Positions 6,006 through 33,312 of a stretch of DNA of 64,000 nt are shown in pieces. The stretch is from Candidatus Woesearchaeota archaeon (lineage in GTDB: Archaea > Nanobdellota > Nanobdellia > SCGC-AAA011-G17 > JACPIM01): contig JACPIM010000004.1 in assembly GCA_016188045.1 (NCBI GenBank), positions 8,493-72,492 on the forward strand, read 5' to 3'. The notes beneath the pieces were generated by a model. It was not told the DNA's origin, did no database searches, and saw nothing but the letters and a program-made list of their open reading frames with translations. Numbering within the stretch: position 1 is the stretch's first letter; every line of letters begins with the position of its first letter. Made by a program: the position numbers and the translations under genes.

Positions 6006-6386
6006 TTATGCTTGATAATTCAAAGCAAGTCTATCACATTCTTTAAGACCTTCTAATCTTTTTCTAAAATATTCTGATAATTGTCCACTATAATGTCCTT
6101 TGTCAAGCATCCAATTCACAAACCCGATTATGTACTCAACACGTCCAATGCCAGAAGATTTATTAGACGTAATCACTAAAGGAACAAGACCAAGACCTTC
6201 ATTTAAAAGAGATTTAATTTGCCTCTCTCTATCATCCAATACACCAAATTTATCATCAAGGCAAGTAGGCAATCTTACAGCAATCTCTTTCAATATTCTT
6301 TCAGACAGTTTCATCAAAAACCATAAAACCAGAGAATATTTAAACATTCCCATCCAGAACAGAAATCTATATAAAGAAAAAACCAT
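6006..6386 (-). CDS. hypothetical protein (likely starts at an internal Met)
   Basis: ORF preferred over the overlapping + strand ORF 6100..6402 on composition; no family recognised. Confidence 0.35.
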   Translation of the reverse strand: MVFSLYRFLFWMGMFKYSLVLWFLMKLSERILKEIAVRLPTCLDDKFGVLDDRERQIKSLLNEGLGLVPLVITSNKSSGIGRVEYIIGFVNWMLDKGHYSGQLSEYFRKRLEGLKECDRLALNYQA

Positions 6387-6489: not shown

Positions 6490-9400
6490 ATGACAACTAT
6501 CCAAAAGATTAAATTTCACGGTTTTAAGTCGTTTGCAAAACCACTGGAGATAGAGTTTGGAAATAGTTTTAATTGCATTATTGGACCAAATGGTAGTGGA
6601 AAGTCATTATCAGGTGATGCAACAGTATTAACAAGCAAGGGAAATGAAATATCAATTAAAAAACTAGTTGAATCAAAACTAAACAAAGCAGATAAAATAA
6701 AGAAGTTAGATGATGGGGTTTATTGTGAAAGTAAAAGACCAACAAAGATTATTTCTTTAAACCCCATTAGTATGAAAAATGAGGAGTATGCAATTTCAAG
6801 ATTTATAAAAAGAGAAGGAGAACCACACCTATACGAGATAAAGACAAGAACAGGCAAAAAAATTAAATGTACTGGCTGTCATCCAGTTATGATATTTAAA
6901 GAAGGAAAAGTTCAAAGCGTCTTAGTTCAAGAGCTTAAAAAGACAGACAGAATCGCAACCCCTAGAATAATATTCACAAATACTAATTCAGAATCAAAAA
7001 ATCTAGCTAGACTCCTAGGCTACATAATAGGAGATGGATATATAAATAAAAACAGAATAGAATTTGTTAATGCTGATAAAGAAATTTTGGAAGATTTTAT
7101 AGGACTAACACGAGAATTATTTAATCTTTCTCCAGAATATAATAAAGTTACTAATAATCTTACAAGACTAATCTACTGGAATAAGAAATTTGTTAATTTT
7201 ATAATTGCTTTAATTAAAAATAAAAAAGAGAAATATACGAGCCAATATAAATATATTCCTAATAGAATCCTAAAGCTGGGTTTAGATACAACATCCAATT
7301 TGTTGGCAGCTTTATATGACACAGATGGAACAGTATACAAAAATAATGATGTTATAGAATTCTGCTCTAAAAATGAAAAATTGGTAAATCAAATTCAAAG
7401 ATTACTGTTAAGATTTAATATAATCGCAAGAAAAAAAGAAAGAAGTTGTTGTGCTTCTAATACAATCAATAAAATAAAAAGAAAGTATTATTATTTATAC
7501 ATTGAGGGACATGAAAATATAATTAAATTCTACAAGAATATTCCACTAAGATGTAGACACAAAATAGAAAGATTAGAAAATAAATTAAAATCACCAAAAG
7601 TTTCAAATCCAAATATTGATGTTTTACCAAAAGAAACGAATGCATTAATAAAAAAAGCGATAAATTTACTAGGAATTAGTTATAAACCATTAAGAAAAGA
7701 ATATCCAAAAATAGCGGCATATATAGAAAATAGATGCAATCCAACAAGACCGGGCTTACATGAAATTATACCAATATTATCATCTAAATTATTACAAATT
7801 TACTCTTCTGGCTTATCTTTAAGGTACGACCAATTAGAATTAGTAAATGTAATGGATCAACTAGGATTATCAGGTAGACAAACAAGCAACGCATTAGGCT
7901 TAAGCCCACAAATAATAAGAAACCATTGGGCAACAGGAAATTTTCAGGCCAAAGCCGAAAATTTAGAAAATTTCTTCAATTTTATTCAACGCGCAATAAG
8001 TTCAAGACTAATAGAATTAAAGTCAATAATGAATAAGTTATATAATTTGGCAAATTCTGATATTTTTTGGGATGAAATAGTCTCTATCAAAAAAGTAAAG
8101 GGCGAAAAATTTGTTTATGATTTAACAATCCCCAATAATCACAATTTCATAGCAAACGGTATTTTTGTACATAATTCAAATATAGTTGATGGTTTAACTT
8201 TTGTATTGGGAAAAAGATCAGCTAAAGCCATGAGGGCAGAAAAAGCCTCTAATCTTATTTTCAATGGCGGAAAAAAAGGCTCAGCAATGAAAGAAGCGTC
8301 AGTATCAATTTATTTTACAAATAATAATAAGGAGTTTCCAATAGCCTCAGAAACAGTAAAAATAACAAGGATAGTTAAGCAATCCGGTCAATCAGATTAT
8401 AAAATAAATGACGAAAAAAGAACAAGAGAGCAGATTATTGATTTGATATCGAAAGCAGGCATTGATCCAGACGGCTTTAACATCTTGCTTCAGGGAGATG
8501 TAGTTTCTTTTACAGAAATGCGTTCTGATGAACGTAGACAAATAATAGAAGATGTAGCAGGAATTTCAGTTTATGAAGATAAAAAGCAGAAAGCACTATT
8601 AGAGTTAGAAAAAGTAGATCAAAAAATAAATGAAGCCAATTTGATTTTAAAAGAAAGAGATGCTCATTTAAGGAACTTAAAAAAGGAACGTGATCAGGCA
8701 TTAAAATTCAAAGAATTGGAGCAAAATATCAAAGAAAATAAAGCAACTTATCTTTACTTGCAAATAAAAGAAAAAAGCGAAAAAAAAGAAGAGGTTGTCT
8801 CTAGGATAAAAAAACACCAGCAGAATATTGATTCTCTAAATAAAGAAGTCCAAGAATTAAGAACAAAAATAGACCAAAAGAAATCAGAAGTAGACTCAAT
8901 AAATAAGAACATTGAAGAAAAATCAGAGATAGAACAAGTTAGCTTACAACAGAATATTGAAAAAATAAGGGAAGAAATTTTAAGAGACGAAACCAGATTG
9001 GAAAACTTAAAAACAGAGATTCAAAAAGTTAATCAAAGGTCATCGCAATTAAAAAAAGATGAACTGGAAATAGAAAGTAAGATTGGAGAGTTAAATAAAG
9101 AAAAAATAAATCTTGAAGAAAAACAAAAAACACTAAAAAGAGAAGAAGAAACAGTAAGAAAAAATATCCAAAATTACAAAAAAAAGCACAATATCCAGGA
9201 CTTCTCATTAATAGAGAAAATAGAAACAGAAATAGAACAGTTGCAAAACAGCATAATCTATTTAAAAGAGCAAAAATCTTCTTTGATTATAGAACAGGAT
9301 AGAAACAATCAAGAAGTAACTAAAGTTAAAGAATTAGTAGATAAGTTCTCCTCACCACAAGTCAAAAAGAAAAGAGAAGAACTGGAAAAAGTTGAAAAAG

Positions 9401-28900: not shown

Positions 28901-28934
28901 TAAAACCACCTATTTTATAAAAAATACCATTCAC
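25914..28934 (-). CDS. FlaI/TadA-family secretion ATPase (T2SS-E) interrupted by an intein
   Basis: Walker A VGGTGTGKTS, Asp box IVSIEDTRELNL, RPDYVVVGEIRGAEAY, then the intein, then GHPSMGTMHAE (His box). 562 aa remain after intein removal. Confidence 0.85.
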   Translation of the reverse strand: MNGIFYKIGGFMLFRKKEAKTNSFANTKALTEKTIPEQKAQTEFKINLKQQIFELPTVKDKTKLNIRYPLIAPFAYAHIFWDEKRHELIYQVEEPILNSDEQRVLAILEKGIEELINISFIAIKSSEVIIKYLEENVKVLLNEYRIKVNKNTLLKLMYYIYRDFVGLNEIEPIMRDYFIEDIECNGVNSSVYIVHRKYRNIRTNVLYNDVSKLTSLVEKLAQKCGKYISYASPLLDGALPDGSRANATYTQDITSKGPTFTIRKFTVDPWSPVKLMQFRTVSPEVLAYLWLLIEYESNVLIVGGTGTGKTSFLNSIAFFVPPQARIVSIEDTRELNLLHENWLPSVAREGVGITSLVGTKQGEVTLFDLLKESFRQRPDYVVVGEIRGAEAYVLFQGMSSIRGDEKIMVLNDEHPKRISIKDMKKDIKYKVITYDELGNVKIMPVKFMIRHSGQKVLYEIITKKGRKITISKNHSLFNYDNGIIPIEAEKIKKGDRVLIPSKIPCGYCDFDEIDIMEYLSDIRVFAPDHVKEASHKLGYYKASKICGVCSITDYYSNFKRSKPSSLRAEKFVRLMKEAGLKYNKDDLIFKYDNRSKGFMGNLKLTPELLRLCGYYVSEGSLDDGENNSKIEFYNLNKEILDDMRHCIRKVTGSDAKERITYGFGKSIELSVNHRVLFEFLKRHFGKKENKHIPDFVFGLSKEKISALLSGLYTGDGSLTKDVGYYTISKELANDVAQLLLVYGIVARIGKRKRKGRKKIDYEVLFFSKWEKDVFLENVKIIGKRIIMKKIGKPKSSNYVNDLYLDIVLKINKKILKKPEPVYDLCVPGTQNFIGGFGGVLLHNSGHPSMGTMHAEDLHTMIRRLESPPINLSPTLVNSLDVVCIMANIKQEGKETRKVKKIIEIVKIGDKAGEETINEPFIWDPKSDKFYFKSHGKSYLKMDSRAFDKITTHYGISREKLMDEFRKRTLLLMRMYKAGITGFKEVHNVITAYYKTPDMILKKFGIS
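26406..27737 (-). mobile_element. intein (444 aa) with LAGLIDADG homing-endonuclease domain, between QGMS and SGHP
   Basis: Starts S-IRGDEKIMV, ends VYDLCVP...VLLHN followed by S. LAGLIDADG-like blocks LCGYYVSEGSL and LLSGLYTGDGSL. Confidence 0.75.
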
Positions 28935-28970: not shown

Positions 28971-29549
28971 CTAAATTACTTTAATTTTAATATTCACGGG
29001 AAGTTGACCAACACCACCAGTATCTGATTCACCAATACCTTCATTTGATATTATTAGTCCAAACTTTCCAGTTAGTTTACTACTTTCTCCTTCTGAAATC
29101 AATCTAATATGTCTATCAGAATAATCTGAACTTATTTTAATAATAAAATAATCCACCAATAATTTATCGCTATGCTCAATAATATCTAAATTTTTTTCCC
29201 TTATAATTATTGCTTTTCCATCTGTAGGAAGATTGGTAGGAGAAATTTCCTGAATTTTTGCTTTTGTCTGCATTTGCCAGTAAATTTGATTTTTATCTCC
29301 TGTCAAAATAGTTAATTCTCCTTTTTTAATTATTACCGGGTTTAATGCCCTTCTGCTACCGGGACCATCAGAAACTACAGTATTAATTGCTTCATCAATA
29401 GAATGCATAACTTCTTTGCTCTGTACAAAAGTATTTCTATCTCTCATATCATTTATTAAAGGAACACCAGCAGTAACAATTAAAGTCAAAGTTATAACTC
29501 CTATCGCTATATAAATTACAGTTGCTATCCAAATATCACCTTTTTTCAT
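28971..29549 (-). CDS. membrane-anchored pilus accessory protein (FlaF/FlaG-like)
   Basis: Single N-terminal TM (IWIATVIYIAIGVITLTLIV) then a beta-rich soluble domain; sits between the pilins and the ATPase. Confidence 0.4.
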   Translation of the reverse strand: MKKGDIWIATVIYIAIGVITLTLIVTAGVPLINDMRDRNTFVQSKEVMHSIDEAINTVVSDGPGSRRALNPVIIKKGELTILTGDKNQIYWQMQTKAKIQEISPTNLPTDGKAIIIREKNLDIIEHSDKLLVDYFIIKISSDYSDRHIRLISEGESSKLTGKFGLIISNEGIGESDTGGVGQLPVNIKIKVI

Positions 29550-29624
29550 CTTGCCTCTTTTTATTAATTGAATGTTTTATATAACTTGAAAAAAGTTTAT
29601 ATACTTTCCTACCCTATATTCTTT

Positions 29625-29942
29625 ATGGAAAAATCACTACTTATAAAATTTTTAGGAGAAAATCCAATATTCAGAATTATAGATTCTTTAATTGAAAGTA
29701 AGGGCATAGATGTAACTAAAAAACAGATCATAGAATTATCAGGTATTTCAAAATCTGCTTTTTTTAAATATTGGAAACAAATTGAAGAACAAGAAATTGT
29801 ACAGATTACAAGAAAATTTGGAAAAACAAAACTTTTTATTTTAAATTCTAAAAACCCAATAGTTAAAAAATTACTTGAACTAGAAAGCACATTAATTGAA
29901 AAAACATTGAATAAACACAAATTAATTGAAATATCAGCTTAG
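29625..29942 (+). CDS. winged-HTH transcriptional regulator, divergent from the pilus operon
   Basis: ORF-track start 29568; internal Met at 29625 preferred. HTH-like IIELSGISKSAFFKYWKQIEE. Confidence 0.5.
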   Translation: MEKSLLIKFLGENPIFRIIDSLIESKGIDVTKKQIIELSGISKSAFFKYWKQIEEQEIVQITRKFGKTKLFILNSKNPIVKKLLELESTLIEKTLNKHKLIEISA

Positions 29943-30042
29943 ATTTTTAGATAAACACAATTATTCACAATTTTTTATTTCATACATCTAATCTTCCAAT
30001 TAAGAACAAATACTAAAATTATCTCAAAAATTAAAAAAAATA

Positions 30043-30618
30043 TTAAACAGTTGGTTCTGCAGTTACTTGACAATTTGGAACATTTACTAAATTGTAATCC
30101 TGGACATTTTGTGTACATAACACCGGATCTTTGTCATCAGTTCCAGCTATTTTAGCAATTGCATCTATTTTGATGGGATTATTAATTGCTAAGGTATTAA
30201 TTAATGCAGGAGTGCTAGTGCTAATAAAAGTCTTAACACCAAACGATCCTAATGGACTAGTAGAGAGATCTAGTTTATCTGCTTTAACATCTCCCTCGTC
30301 GCCAGGACTTGCTCTTAAAGTAAGCTCAATAATATCTAAATTACCATTATTTTCAACAGTTACGCTTTTAATATGTCCTTGATTGGCCCCATCACAAAGC
30401 ACTCTTGATATGCTAAATTTCAATTCTGTAACACATTTCAAAGTAACATCTGTAGTCTGAGTAGTTCTTTTAGTCATACTATCAACAAAACTGCCACCCC
30501 AAGTTATTATCACAGCAGCTAAAGCCACAGTAAAACCAATAAGCAATACAGTGGCAATTAAAGGAGTTATACCCTTTTCGTCAAAGTTTTTCTTTGAAAA
30601 AGGTTGTTTTGATATCAT
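30043..30618 (-). CDS. type IV pilin (class III signal peptide), unusually long leader
   Basis: MISKQPFSKKNFDEKG then ITPLIATVLLIGFTVALAAVII (archaeal prepilin N-domain). Confidence 0.7.
   Translation of the reverse strand: MISKQPFSKKNFDEKGITPLIATVLLIGFTVALAAVIITWGGSFVDSMTKRTTQTTDVTLKCVTELKFSISRVLCDGANQGHIKSVTVENNGNLDIIELTLRASPGDEGDVKADKLDLSTSPLGSFGVKTFISTSTPALINTLAINNPIKIDAIAKIAGTDDKDPVLCTQNVQDYNLVNVPNCQVTAEPTV
30578..30618 (+). repeat. 41-nt direct repeat, copy A (encodes the leader of the first pilin)
   Basis: tcaaaacaacctttttcaaagaaaaactttgacgaaaag on the gene strand; near-identical to 33158..33198. Confidence 0.85.
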
Positions 30619-30627
30619 AATTTCACC

Positions 30628-31122
30628 TCACACCCTAATAGTTTTACTAGCTCCAGAGCAAGGAACTAAAGGAGCACCTCTCCCTTCTGGCCTTAATGCA
30701 GGAATAATTTCAACTTCAGTAGTCTGTTTACATAATCTCCCGCCAACACCGGTAGTATCATTTTCCGTACATTCTTGATCACTTTTTACTAATGAATATG
30801 AACCGCCAGGCTCTATATTATCATATAGCTCAGATTTTCTAACATTCCCACCAAATACCTCTCTTATTATCAGATTAATTTTTATATTTCCTTTATTAAT
30901 AATATTAATCACGCTTCCAGCAGTAACATCAATTTGAACTGCATCACACTCCAATTGTTTTCTGCTCAATTCAGCATTTTTTTCAACAGCTTGTTTCTGC
31001 ACCTCTCTTGTCCATAAAAAAACAACAGTTATAACTATTAAAACAAAAAAAAGCAACAAAAGTGTAGCAATTAAAGGAGTTATACCTCTTTTTTTCATTT
31101 TAGCATTCTTCAATTGATTCAA
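30628..31122 (-). CDS. type IV pilin (class III signal peptide)
   Basis: MNQLKNAKMKKRG then ITPLIATLLLLFFVLIVITVVFL. Confidence 0.75.
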   Translation of the reverse strand: MNQLKNAKMKKRGITPLIATLLLLFFVLIVITVVFLWTREVQKQAVEKNAELSRKQLECDAVQIDVTAGSVINIINKGNIKINLIIREVFGGNVRKSELYDNIEPGGSYSLVKSDQECTENDTTGVGGRLCKQTTEVEIIPALRPEGRGAPLVPCSGASKTIRV

Positions 31123-31594
31123 TTATCTTTTCACCTTCAGGACAAATTGTATTCATATCACCAAAAGCTATAAACGGCGTTAATATTATTTCTTTATTAC
31201 TATCACAATTGTTGAGATTATTTAAACTTTGCTCTTCTCCAGGTTTTAAAGGATTATCCAAATCTATTTTACCGCTAATATCACTTCCATCATCCTTAGT
31301 GCATATATATCTTATTCCATTAATGCTAAAACTACCCCTGTTTACAGCCTTGATTTCTAAATTATTATTCCTAATGCACCCAAAACCACCGAGATGAACT
31401 TCAGCACATCTAGTTTCAATTTCAGATTCTTTTACAGTAGTTTCAACAACTCTTTTAGACTCACCTTTGGACCACATACCAACAACAATTGCCAAAGTGA
31501 TACTTAATCCTATAATCAAGACATAGGATATTAATTCGGCAGCCCCCCTTTTATTCATTATCAACACACCCACCTTCCAACTTACAAAGATCAT
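31100..31594 (-). CDS. type IV pilin (class III signal peptide)
   Basis: MNKRGA then AELISYVLIIGLSITLAIVVG. Confidence 0.7.
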   Translation of the reverse strand: MIFVSWKVGVLIMNKRGAAELISYVLIIGLSITLAIVVGMWSKGESKRVVETTVKESEIETRCAEVHLGGFGCIRNNNLEIKAVNRGSFSINGIRYICTKDDGSDISGKIDLDNPLKPGEEQSLNNLNNCDSNKEIILTPFIAFGDMNTICPEGEKIIESIEEC

Positions 31595-32348
31595 TCATCA
31601 AGCAATTTTCTTCATCTCTTAAATTACAGTCACAAATAGTTTTTGGGCTTAATGAAGGATCTACACAATATTGTCTTAATCCATCAACCCAATTTTCACC
31701 TTTTTCAAATTTATGATTAGTATACACTTTTCTCTCCTCTCCTTTTTTTTCCTCGCTTAAAATAACTATCTGTGGAACACCCTTAATAATACCACTAGTA
31801 TATTTTATATTACTAACAACATAAGTAACATTATAAACATTATCATCTGTCGTTAAATCCAAAGTTTCAGAACACTTCTCTAAAATATCACCTAGTATAC
31901 CCATAAAATCTTCTGAAAGGTCACCAAAAGTAGTACCTAAGTGTATTTCGCCTTTACAACCATCTATCTTTTTTTTATTATTTTCATCAACCCAGACTAA
32001 TATAGGCTGATCTAAATGATTTCCAATAATTACTCTTCTGTTATCCCTATGACTGTAATCAAAAAAATAGATAAATCCAAAGGCAGAATTTATGGTTTTG
32101 GAATATGAAGTAAATTTCCCGCTAAACTCATTAAAATTTTTTTGAACATCTAATTCACTATTTTTTAATAATTCCTGACTTAAAGAAGTAAGAAATTTAG
32201 CACTTTCCTTATCATAATTGTTGCTTATTTCAATAAAAAAATCACTAAAAACAGTGCCCTTTGCGGTATTTAAATTAATGGAAAGAAGATATATAACTAA
32301 ACTAAAGATAAGTGCAGCTAAGATATAGATCTGACCTCTTTTATTCAT
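31551..32348 (-). CDS. type IV pilin-like protein (class III signal peptide), Cys-rich C-terminus
   Basis: MNKRGQ then IYILAALIFSLVIYLL. Confidence 0.65.
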   Translation of the reverse strand: MNKRGQIYILAALIFSLVIYLLSINLNTAKGTVFSDFFIEISNNYDKESAKFLTSLSQELLKNSELDVQKNFNEFSGKFTSYSKTINSAFGFIYFFDYSHRDNRRVIIGNHLDQPILVWVDENNKKKIDGCKGEIHLGTTFGDLSEDFMGILGDILEKCSETLDLTTDDNVYNVTYVVSNIKYTSGIIKGVPQIVILSEEKKGEERKVYTNHKFEKGENWVDGLRQYCVDPSLSPKTICDCNLRDEENCLMNDLCKLEGGCVDNE

Positions 32349-32938: not shown

Positions 32939-33024
32939 ACTAATGAAAAGCCAGGGGTGAGACTTGAACTCACTATCTCCGCCTTTTTGTTTTAAATACC
33001 AAGGCGGTACATTGACCAGTTATG
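32939..33024 (-). tRNA. tRNA-Thr (anticodon GGU) with 12-nt canonical intron
   Basis: Hand fold: acceptor GCCGGGG, D-arm GCAT/ATGT, anticodon stem CCGCC/GGCGG with loop TTGGTA-[TTTAAAACAAAA]-A, T-arm GTGAG-TTCAAGT-CTCAC. Caveat: the 1:72 pair reads G:G. Confidence 0.5.
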
Positions 33025-33073
33025 CTACCCCGGCACAAAATCTGAAGAAATAATGCGATTAATAAAGATTATG

Positions 33074-33217
33074 AATGCGGGGAACAGGATTTGAACCTGC
33101 GCAGGCACTAAGCCACAGGATTTCTCAGCAAGACTTAAGTCCTGCCCGTGAAGTCCAACTTTTTCGTCAAAGTTTTTCTCTGAAAAAGGTTGTTTGACCA
33201 GACTCCGGCATCCCCGC
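33074..33217 (-). tRNA. tRNA-Leu (anticodon UAA), class II, with two introns (about 44 nt in D-arm, 12 nt at 37/38)
   Basis: Acceptor GCGGGGA/TCCCCGC plus A; T-arm GCAGG-TTCAAAT-CCTGT; variable arm TGGC-TTAGT-GCCTGC; anticodon stem CAGGA/TCCTG with loop CTTAAG-[TCTTGCTGAGAA]-A; D-stem CCG/CGG split by about 44 nt. Confidence 0.65.
33158..33198 (+). repeat. 41-nt direct repeat, copy B (inside the tRNA-Leu D-loop/intron)
   Basis: Matches copy A with two mismatches and one indel. Confidence 0.85.
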
Positions 33218-33312
33218 ATATAAATAAACAAACAAAAATCTACTTTATAAAATTTATCATAAAATTTATTAATCTCCAAAACTAATTATTTCAATAAAAA
33301 GAAGGTGATTTT

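Follow-up and report, generated by a model that had tools for sequence, protein, structure and literature searches.

The 64,000-nt stretch of Candidatus Woesearchaeota contig JACPIM010000004.1 analyzed here (the window) holds three tRNA genes only, and this work concerns one of them, a twice-interrupted tRNA-Leu(UAA) gene on the minus strand. It occupies 33217..33076 and is 142 nt long, without an encoded CCA and with the discriminator A at 33076. Read along the minus strand, the gene consists of GCGGGGAUGCCGGAGUCUGGUCAA, the intron ACAACCUUUUUCAGAGAAAAACUUUGACGAAAAAGUUGGACUUC, ACGGGCAGGACUUAAG, the intron UCUUGCUGAGAA and AUCCUGUGGCUUAGUGCCUGCGCAGGUUCAAAUCCUGUUCCCCGCA. Removal of both inserts leaves an 86-nt class II tRNA, built from exons of 24, 16 and 46 nt. 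The features of the gene are listed here, with a vertical bar marking the cut within each bulge.

33076..33217, minus strand: tRNA-Leu(UAA) gene with three exons and two introns; Rfam 35.7 bits, and called by ARAGORN after excision.
33194..33217, minus strand: exon 1 (nt 1-24), with the acceptor 5' strand, the D-stem 5' strand and the D-loop to A21; it reads like uninterrupted DPANN genes, ...UGCCGGAGUCUGGUCAA.
33150..33193, minus strand: D-loop intron of 44 nt (pre-tRNA nt 25-68), between positions 21 and 22; bulge-helix-bulge register i=24, j=69.
33134..33149, minus strand: exon 2 (nt 69-84), with the D-stem 3' strand, position 26, the anticodon stem 5' strand and the loop to G37; it contains the anticodon UAA.
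33122..33133, minus strand: canonical 37/38 intron of 12 nt, with central helix CUUA/UGAG and bulges AG|U and AA|A.
33076..33121, minus strand: exon 3 (nt 97-142), with A38, the anticodon stem 3' strand, the 15-nt variable region, the T-arm, the acceptor 3' strand and A73.
33196..33199, minus strand: 5' strand of the central 4-bp helix of the D-loop motif (exonic G18 G19 U20 C20a), followed by the 5' bulge AA|A at 33193..33195.
33152..33155, minus strand: 3' strand of the same central helix, GACU (intronic), followed by the 3' bulge UC|A at 33149..33151.
33189..33192 (CAAC) with 33156..33159 (GUUG), minus strand: intron-side helix of the D-loop motif, by base pairing.
33243..33252, minus strand: TATA-like box TTTTATAAAG, a putative promoter read from the sequence, 26-35 nt upstream of the tRNA 5' end.

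The interrupted gene was missed by the default Rfam run and by ARAGORN on the raw sequence, with or without its intron option. With permissive filters, the Rfam tRNA model gives an end-to-end match at 33076-33217 on the minus strand (35.7 bits against a gathering score of 29; E=8e-6 locally, 8.6e-4 window-wide), which has to accommodate inserts of 49 nt in the D-loop and of 15 nt in the anticodon loop. Once pre-tRNA nt 25-68 are deleted, ARAGORN calls a tRNA-Leu(UAA) with a 12-nt anticodon-loop intron, and once both inserts are deleted it calls an 86-nt tRNA-Leu(UAA). The spliced product has the features of a class II tRNA-Leu: a 15-nt variable region with a 3-bp stem, A73, G18-G19, the anticodon UAA, and the T-loop UUCAAAU expected of an archaeal class II tRNA-Leu. 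The TATA-like box is identical and equally spaced in a close relative (L001; L-numbers denote related contigs or loci from genome, metagenome and IMG/VR scans), and similar boxes stand ahead of most related tRNA-Leu genes.

The first-pass annotation of this locus had proposed a tRNA-Leu(UAA) with two introns, and the ARAGORN calls on the trimmed sequence bear out that identity. Its 12-nt intron at 37/38 and its 15-nt variable region are as it described them. The gene is, however, 142 nt long rather than 144, as the proposed range included two surplus 3' nucleotides, and the mature length is 86 nt and not 88. The size given for the D-arm insert, 44 nt, was right; its placement at 22/23 was not, as the bulge-helix-bulge register puts the insert between A21 and A22. 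Of the checks that the annotation had named, ARAGORN gave a divided answer, missing the raw gene and calling it after deletion of the inserts, and bulge-helix-bulge prediction succeeded at both pairs of junctions.

Each insert sits in a core made of a 3-nt bulge, a 4-bp helix and a second 3-nt bulge, and in each core all four central pairs (4/4) form. In the D-loop register the cuts fall after A24 and before A69, and exon G19-C22 (GGUC) pairs with intron nt 63-66 (GACU). If every 4-bp helix between 3-nt bulges is accepted, a scan returns dozens of false candidates per gene; it is informative only when confined to junctions at which excision gives back the homologous mature sequence. With the D-loop junction set by homology, a core with 4/4 central pairs and at least four intron-helix pairs arose in 24 of 100,000 shuffles of the intron. 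Neither intron has the strict motif, which carries a helix of 2 bp or more at each outer side; both are relaxed. The motif of the 12-nt intron has 6 bp on the exon side (the anticodon stem and one further pair) and none on the intron side, which is an 8-nt loop only.

Related genes place the D-loop junction independently of the motif. A scan of one genome per species for TGCCGGAGTCTGGTCAAA found 44 loci, about 30 of them archaeal tRNA-Leu genes, mostly in metagenome-assembled genomes (MAGs) of DPANN archaea. About 25 of these roughly 30 genes read GGTCAAACGGGC, the exact product of removing the 44 nt. No gaps are needed to align the spliced sequence with 11 uninterrupted DPANN tRNA-Leu genes; over that alignment 99.6% of the cloverleaf is paired and both partners have changed in 13 pairs, values that none of 500 shuffles reached. 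A metagenome scan for tRNA-Leu(UAA) with a D-loop insert of 14-44 nt gave 18 contigs, 12 of which carry tRNA genes. Together, the genome and metagenome scans revealed four unrelated intron sequences at site 21/22, each with 4/4 central pairs and with its own helix of 4-5 bp:

44-nt intron (window, L001/L002/L064): GGUC with partner GACU; intron helix CAAC/GUUG.
35-nt intron (L055): GGUC with partner GACU; intron helix GAGU/ACUC.
24-nt intron (L025/L052/L053): GGUC with partner GGCU; intron helix CCUAC/GUAGG.
19-nt intron (L054/L057): GGUC with partner GACC; intron helix CUUC/GAAG.

Removal of any of the four restores UGCCGGAGUCUGGUCAAACGGGCAGG. The 44-nt intron differs by one substitution in L001, L002 and L064. 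Further D-loop inserts, a few nucleotides upstream, occur in L048, L050, L056/L060, L058 and L061, with less regular cores and mostly 3/4 central pairs.

The closest relatives display the same mature tRNA around different introns. Spliced products of L001, whose GAPDH is 92% identical to that of the window, and of L055 equal the window product over all 86 nt, though their intron sets and flanks differ. L001 carries a third intron in its tRNA-Leu, 35 nt long, in the T-loop at 59/60 (8135-8169, minus strand), with the strict motif and flanking helices of 5 bp and 8 bp. In L055 both the D-loop intron and the 37/38 intron differ from those of the window, and there is one more, of 16 nt, at 30/31. 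L003 (GAPDH 80%) probably has no D-loop intron, since it reads GGTCAAACG at the contig end. Two independent assemblies, L097 and L098, hold an identical 5' part of the window gene with both introns, and the gene structure is therefore not an assembly artifact. Genes of the window also recur as exact copies in assemblies of the runs SRR12113383, SRR12113384, SRR12113420, SRR12113424 and SRR12113430. As a separate observation, L097 and L098, which belong to the window's own population, both end in the T-arm, a few nucleotides upstream of the site of the third intron in L001; these ends could reflect presence and absence variants of the third intron in the population.

The 44-nt sequence also has relatives at other positions of tRNA-Leu. 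The D-loop intron of L001 aligns with the T-loop intron of L039, in a tRNA-Leu(CAA) of a 'Parvarchaeota' MAG, at 38 of 44 positions with one gap (z=11.6, 0 of 1000 shuffles). It also aligns with the T-loop intron of L021 (tRNA-Leu(AAG), same contig; z=8.3) and with the 37/38 anticodon-loop intron of L046 (z=6.9). The members, at the T-loop or at 37/38 of DPANN tRNA-Leu genes, are these:

L039, 5556-5619, minus strand.
L021, 1046-1093, minus strand.
L046, 6778-6837, minus strand.
L004, L032 and L035, also members.

A family hidden Markov model (HMM) recovers the introns of L039, L021, L046, L004 and L032 at E=1e-7 to 1e-10 and that of L035 at 1.3e-4. Their common parts are a closing helix (N)AACC(C)...GG(G)UU, a U-run/A-run hairpin, whose stem is longer and perfectly complementary in L032 and L039, and the core (A/G)CGUU(G/C)ACG(G/A)AAAA. 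The exon-pairing segment varies with the site, GACU in the D-loop and AGAA in the T-loop introns. Similarity of introns across different tRNA positions is the mark of a translocatable family, and it is found here. For related introns within one genome, the comparison covered the three tRNA genes of the window, and the sole extra strong copy lies in a pilin gene. Since its related introns stand at other tRNA-Leu positions in other DPANN lineages, the D-loop intron probably arose as a copy of some pre-existing intron-like element and was not built in place. Beside this family stands the observation that the tRNA-Leu of L021 ('Ca. Parvarchaeota' CSMAG_2747) has the anticodon loop CUAAGAA, and is thus a tRNA-Leu(AAG) with a wobble A, as reported for ARMAN-4 and ARMAN-5.

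The copy in protein-coding DNA lies 2.6 kb from the tRNA-Leu gene, at 30575..30609 (minus strand) within the pilin-like open reading frame (ORF) 30618..30043. It is identical at 34 of 35 positions to exon AA plus intron nt 1-33 (blastn-short E=6e-12) and stands in frame at codons 4-15, in the signal peptide; the ORF reads MISKQPFSKKNFDEKG|ITPLIATVLLIGF..., with ITPLIAT... following the bar here as in the L001 ortholog. The pilin ortholog in L001 has no copy; it has the same ribosome-binding site and then reads MLLKRG|ITPLIATVLLIG, and the lineage of the window has therefore gained about 30 nt in frame. At intron position 23 both the window intron and the pilin copy have U, while L001, L039, L021 and L046 have G; because this window-specific U23 is shared, the copy was made from the intron of the window's lineage after its split from L001. 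The A-run microhomology at both ends of the copy fits a templated insertion. We considered splicing of the pilin copy and rejected it: the 3' part of the intron is lacking, and the sole 4-bp candidate helix is unflanked and its use would break the frame. Without the intron 3' part, the copy should be translated and not spliced. The exact 191-aa pilin-like protein is encoded on 8 contigs from at least 4 samples.

Weaker traces of the family occur elsewhere. The HMM gives a weak match at 24848..24816 (minus strand, E=1.3e-3), 20-50 nt upstream of a T2SSF gene and readable as a TATA box plus spacer, and another at 28867..28836 (minus strand, E=0.03), in the first codons of the T2SSE ATPase. In L039 a further match (6263-6306, minus strand) stands between a 12-nt duplicate of a tRNA 5' end and the full gene. 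In the IMG/VR contigs L073, L074, L081 and L092, intergenic DNA, none of it beside a tRNA gene, contains AACC(C)TTT(T)A(G/A)(G/A)AAAA(G/A)CGTTCACG(G/A)AAAA; the IMG/VR scan gave 31 matches, about the chance estimate for the pattern, and these four alone extend to the fuller element. We tentatively suggest, while regarding it as rather doubtful, that a copy-prone, DPANN-wide element may land at varied tRNA positions and survive where a bulge-helix-bulge forms, and may also enter protein-coding DNA, in this case a pilin signal peptide that is cleaved off, and intergenic DNA of IMG/VR contigs. Two other identities were considered for the element. An L7Ae-type K-loop at the intron apex (G38-A39 with G50-A51) was rejected, as the pilin copy and several family members do not have the G-A pairs. 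A promoter made of a B-recognition element (BRE) and a TATA box fits some copies (window 24816-24848 and L074) and not the window intron or L039, and is retained as a rival only, weighed below.

Short elements of another kind adjoin some related genes. In L010, L016, L022, L045, L046 and L047, elements of about 50-90 nt lie just 3' of tRNA-Leu and are bounded by a duplicate of the tRNA 3' part (T-arm 3' strand and acceptor). L018 has a similar short element just 5' of tRNA-Leu, with a duplicate of the tRNA 5' part, nt 1-23, ending in the D-loop. These duplicate-bearing elements may be remnants of integration or of partial duplication.

The anatomy of the gene, its motifs, the match of the spliced sequence to uninterrupted relatives and the conservation of exons amid intron turnover are observations. 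With high confidence we read the locus as a functional two-intron tRNA-Leu(UAA) gene of a DPANN archaeon, spliced by the archaeal splicing endonuclease EndA. Transcription, probably from the upstream TATA-like box, would give a precursor of about 142 nt, whose two bulge-helix-bulge motifs EndA would cleave. In the D-loop, with GGUC paired to GACU, cuts in AA|A and UC|A would excise the 44 nt between A21 and A22; in the anticodon loop, with CUUA paired to UGAG, cuts in AG|U and AA|A would excise the 12 nt at 37/38. An RtcB-type ligase would then join the three exons into the 86-nt tRNA, and CCA would be added after ligation. A tolerant endonuclease is reasonable because both motifs are relaxed, and relaxed bulge-helix-bulge motifs are substrates of the (alpha-beta)2 and epsilon2 endonucleases (PMC3239211). 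For the endonuclease itself, the proposal rests on the literature on the host group.

Several points weigh against this proposal. That the gene is transcribed, that EndA cleaves the precursor and tolerates relaxed motifs, and that the exons are ligated are steps that we infer from the DNA. The D-loop motif is of the relaxed form, with 4 bp on the intron side and none on the exon side, where six unpaired nucleotides (G13-U17a) lie opposite the 3' bulge before the D-stem C10-G12/C70-G72 begins, and a competing pairing (G13:C68 and A14:U67) is able to close the 3' bulge. The minimum-energy fold of the precursor is not a cloverleaf, and we set it aside as uninformative; a structure with the cloverleaf and both cores has -48.4 kcal/mol vs -52.0 for the minimum, that is, 3.6 above it. 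Neither EndA nor RtcB was found among the 40 window ORFs scanned with Pfam, a search confined to the window, and tblastn with M. jannaschii EndA found no EndA across the window, while the same probe found it in L036. An uninterrupted second tRNA-Leu(UAA) may lie elsewhere in the genome; the search covered the 64-kb window, in which Rfam with permissive filters found no other tRNA-Leu.

That last point is the opening for regarding the gene as a pseudogene, inactivated by the 44-nt insertion and backed by a working copy elsewhere in the genome. The relaxed motif, the failure of ARAGORN and of the default Rfam run to see the gene, and the inspection of a 64-kb window out of a whole genome are all compatible with this. 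The exons of a dead gene would be free to decay, yet 86 of 86 exon positions (100%) are identical in L001 and L055, while flanks and introns differ. Chance seldom yields the bulge-helix-bulge core found at the junction, the one site holds four independent introns, and no second copy lies within the 64 kb. A pseudogene is unlikely also because UUA is the main leucine codon here, with 56% of the leucine codons in the long ORFs of the window. Taken with these points, inactivation is very improbable. Alternatively, the D-loop insert might be retained in the mature tRNA as an oversized hairpin, and it does fold into a closed hairpin able to project from the D-loop. Retention would put 44 nt between A21 and the D-stem, and we know of no tRNA with such an oversized D-loop hairpin. 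It would also leave unexplained the precise 3-4-3 motif, whose cuts restore the sequence of uninterrupted relatives, and the freedom of the insert in sequence and length (19-44 nt) provided that the motif is kept. We give retention hardly any credence.

A further alternative takes the insert for a promoter-like or mobile-element module, with the gene partly expressed in pieces from an internal start near the intron 3' end and joined in trans. The core AACC(C)-UUUU..AAAA-(A/G)CGUU(G/C)ACG(G/A)AAAA indeed occurs also upstream of the window T2SSF gene, at the distance of a TATA box from the ATG, as well as between the 12-nt 5' duplicate and the full tRNA in L039 and in intergenic DNA of the four IMG/VR contigs, and reviews tie the leader sequences of split tRNAs to introns (PMC4390854). 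Against it, the TATA-like part is degenerate in the window copy (UUUUUCAGAGAAAAA), and the U/A segment, which lengthens with its complementarity kept in L032 and L039, agrees better with a hairpin than with a TATA box. Both additional sites in the window are weak, with the element pattern at 4 sites vs 0.79 expected, and a normal upstream TATA box serves the whole gene. Expression in pieces therefore seems to us unlikely. Two known classes of intron were rejected outright. The core of a group I or group II ribozyme takes hundreds of nucleotides; the inserts here have 44 and 12 nt, and no Rfam intron family matched at E up to 10, so neither is a self-splicing intron. Box C/D guide RNAs borne on introns, as in haloarchaeal tRNA-Trp, have a C box RUGAUGA and a D box CUGA, and the 44-nt intron has neither box.

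The spliced two-intron gene would belong to a host close to known DPANN genomes. The window has about 30% G+C, and the best matches of its GAPDH are MAGs labeled Pacearchaeota, Woesearchaeota and Nanoarchaeota. The nearest relative (92% identity), the 'Ca. Woesearchaeota' MAG GCA_964367445.1, is also the closest tRNA match. A Woesearchaeota/Pacearchaeota-like DPANN archaeon is supported as the host by these sequence matches, in keeping with the DPANN-like host that the first-pass annotation had assumed. The tRNA-Leu gene is flanked by a bacterial-type GAPDH-PGK glycolysis cluster (33313 onward, plus strand) and by a type IV pilus-like locus on the minus strand, with T2SSF proteins, at least five pilin-like ORFs (28971-32348) and an intein-bearing T2SSE ATPase. 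The intein of this T2SSE-type secretion ATPase (25914-28934, minus strand) has a LAGLIDADG homing endonuclease domain. A tRNA-Thr(GGU) gene follows 41 nt downstream of tRNA-Leu, at 33034..32949 (minus strand), with a 12-nt 37/38 intron at 32985..32996 whose motif is relaxed, with 3/4 central pairs; ARAGORN with the intron option misplaces this intron and wrongly calls tRNA-Phe(AAA). In L001 the tRNA-Leu and tRNA-Thr genes are separated by two small ORFs of 118 and 91 aa (7419-8047, minus strand), which the window lacks.

The most heavily interrupted relative is a tRNA-Leu(UAA) gene on the Hainich groundwater contig L061 (2614..2814, minus strand), with five inserts:

D-loop: 23 nt.
30/31: 21 nt.
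37/38: 14 nt.
53/54: 29 nt.
59/60: 28 nt.

The central helix is 3/4 or 4/4 in each, and ARAGORN calls the spliced product tRNA-Leu(UAA). The reviews consulted give three introns as the maximum per archaeal tRNA gene (PMC3239211, PMC8450103, PMC4390854).

Comparison with known systems provides the frame for the gene. Short protein-spliced introns that lie outside 37/38, the D-arm included, and several to a gene, are familiar from Thermoproteales and Caldiarchaeum subterraneum (PMC3293823, PMC4390854, PMC8450103), and D-arm introns and a multi-intron tRNA-Leu(UAA) have been published for Caldiarchaeum (PMC3293823). As in those organisms, the motifs here are relaxed and the exons restore a normal cloverleaf; unlike them, the host is a 30% G+C DPANN archaeon and not a thermophilic TACK archaeon. 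The statement of the first-pass annotation that non-canonical introns are known mainly from Thermoproteales is out of date, since non-canonical and multiple introns have been published for ARMAN-2 (PMC3239211) and for Pacearchaeota and Woesearchaeota (PMC5829648). The closest precedents are ARMAN-2, with its epsilon2 EndA, Ca. Pacearchaeota RBG_13_33_26 and Ca. Woesearchaeota RBG_13_36_6, all of the same superphylum and the last two of the same group. Kaneta et al. 2018 (PMC5829648) predicted the tRNA genes of a set of genomes that includes one of Pacearchaeota and one of Woesearchaeota; they report non-canonical and multiple introns for this group and associate alpha4 endonucleases with an extra 'L3' loop with increased tRNA gene disruption in DPANN lineages. 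The published enzyme of the host group is this alpha4 form with the L3 loop, vs the (alpha-beta)2 form with the crenarchaeal loop (PMC5829648). Sites 59/60 and 53/54 of ARMAN-2 recur in L001, L054 and L061 (PMC3239211, PMC5829648). The main text of these two DPANN papers gives T-loop examples and overall ratios, and contains no description of a D-loop 21/22 intron in tRNA-Leu(UAA) or of the 30/31 site.

Two other systems are instructive. Large-scale transposition of tRNA introns in Thermoproteales (Fujishima 2010, as cited in PMC4390854) resembles the present case in that related sequences occupy different tRNA positions and the exon-pairing segment is specific to the site. It differs in that the relatives here are in other DPANN lineages and not in the same genome, and in that the window has just one further copy, which lies in a protein-coding gene and is missing the 3' part that a splice motif requires. 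The split tRNAs of Nanoarchaeum equitans and Caldivirga use the same endonuclease motif to join their pieces, and their leaders are related to introns (PMC4390854). In the window gene, unlike split tRNAs, the exons are contiguous, in order and on one strand behind one upstream TATA-like box, and trans-splicing is not required.

Since non-canonical and multiple introns are known from the host group, what is new is one more such gene, not a new kind. For annotation it means that standard tools miss the tRNA for the most used leucine codon, and the MAG would seem to lack an essential tRNA; just such incomplete tRNA sets in DPANN genomes are noted by Kaneta et al. (PMC5829648). With its relatives, the locus forms a compact natural series. 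The mature tRNA stays the same or almost the same, the genes have two, three or five introns taken from a set of five sites (21/22, 30/31, 37/38, 53/54 and 59/60), and intron sequences are replaced completely from one close relative to the next. Such a series is useful for defining the requirements of the DPANN endonuclease and for following intron gain and loss. Cases in which the copying of tRNA intron sequence to another place in a genome can be traced are rare, and the insertion in the pilin signal peptide is one. If the suggestion of a copy-prone element is true, it would give direct evidence of the route by which tRNA genes acquire non-canonical introns, would connect the disruption of these genes with mobile-element or promoter-like DNA, and would help to account for the five introns in the tRNA gene of one relative.

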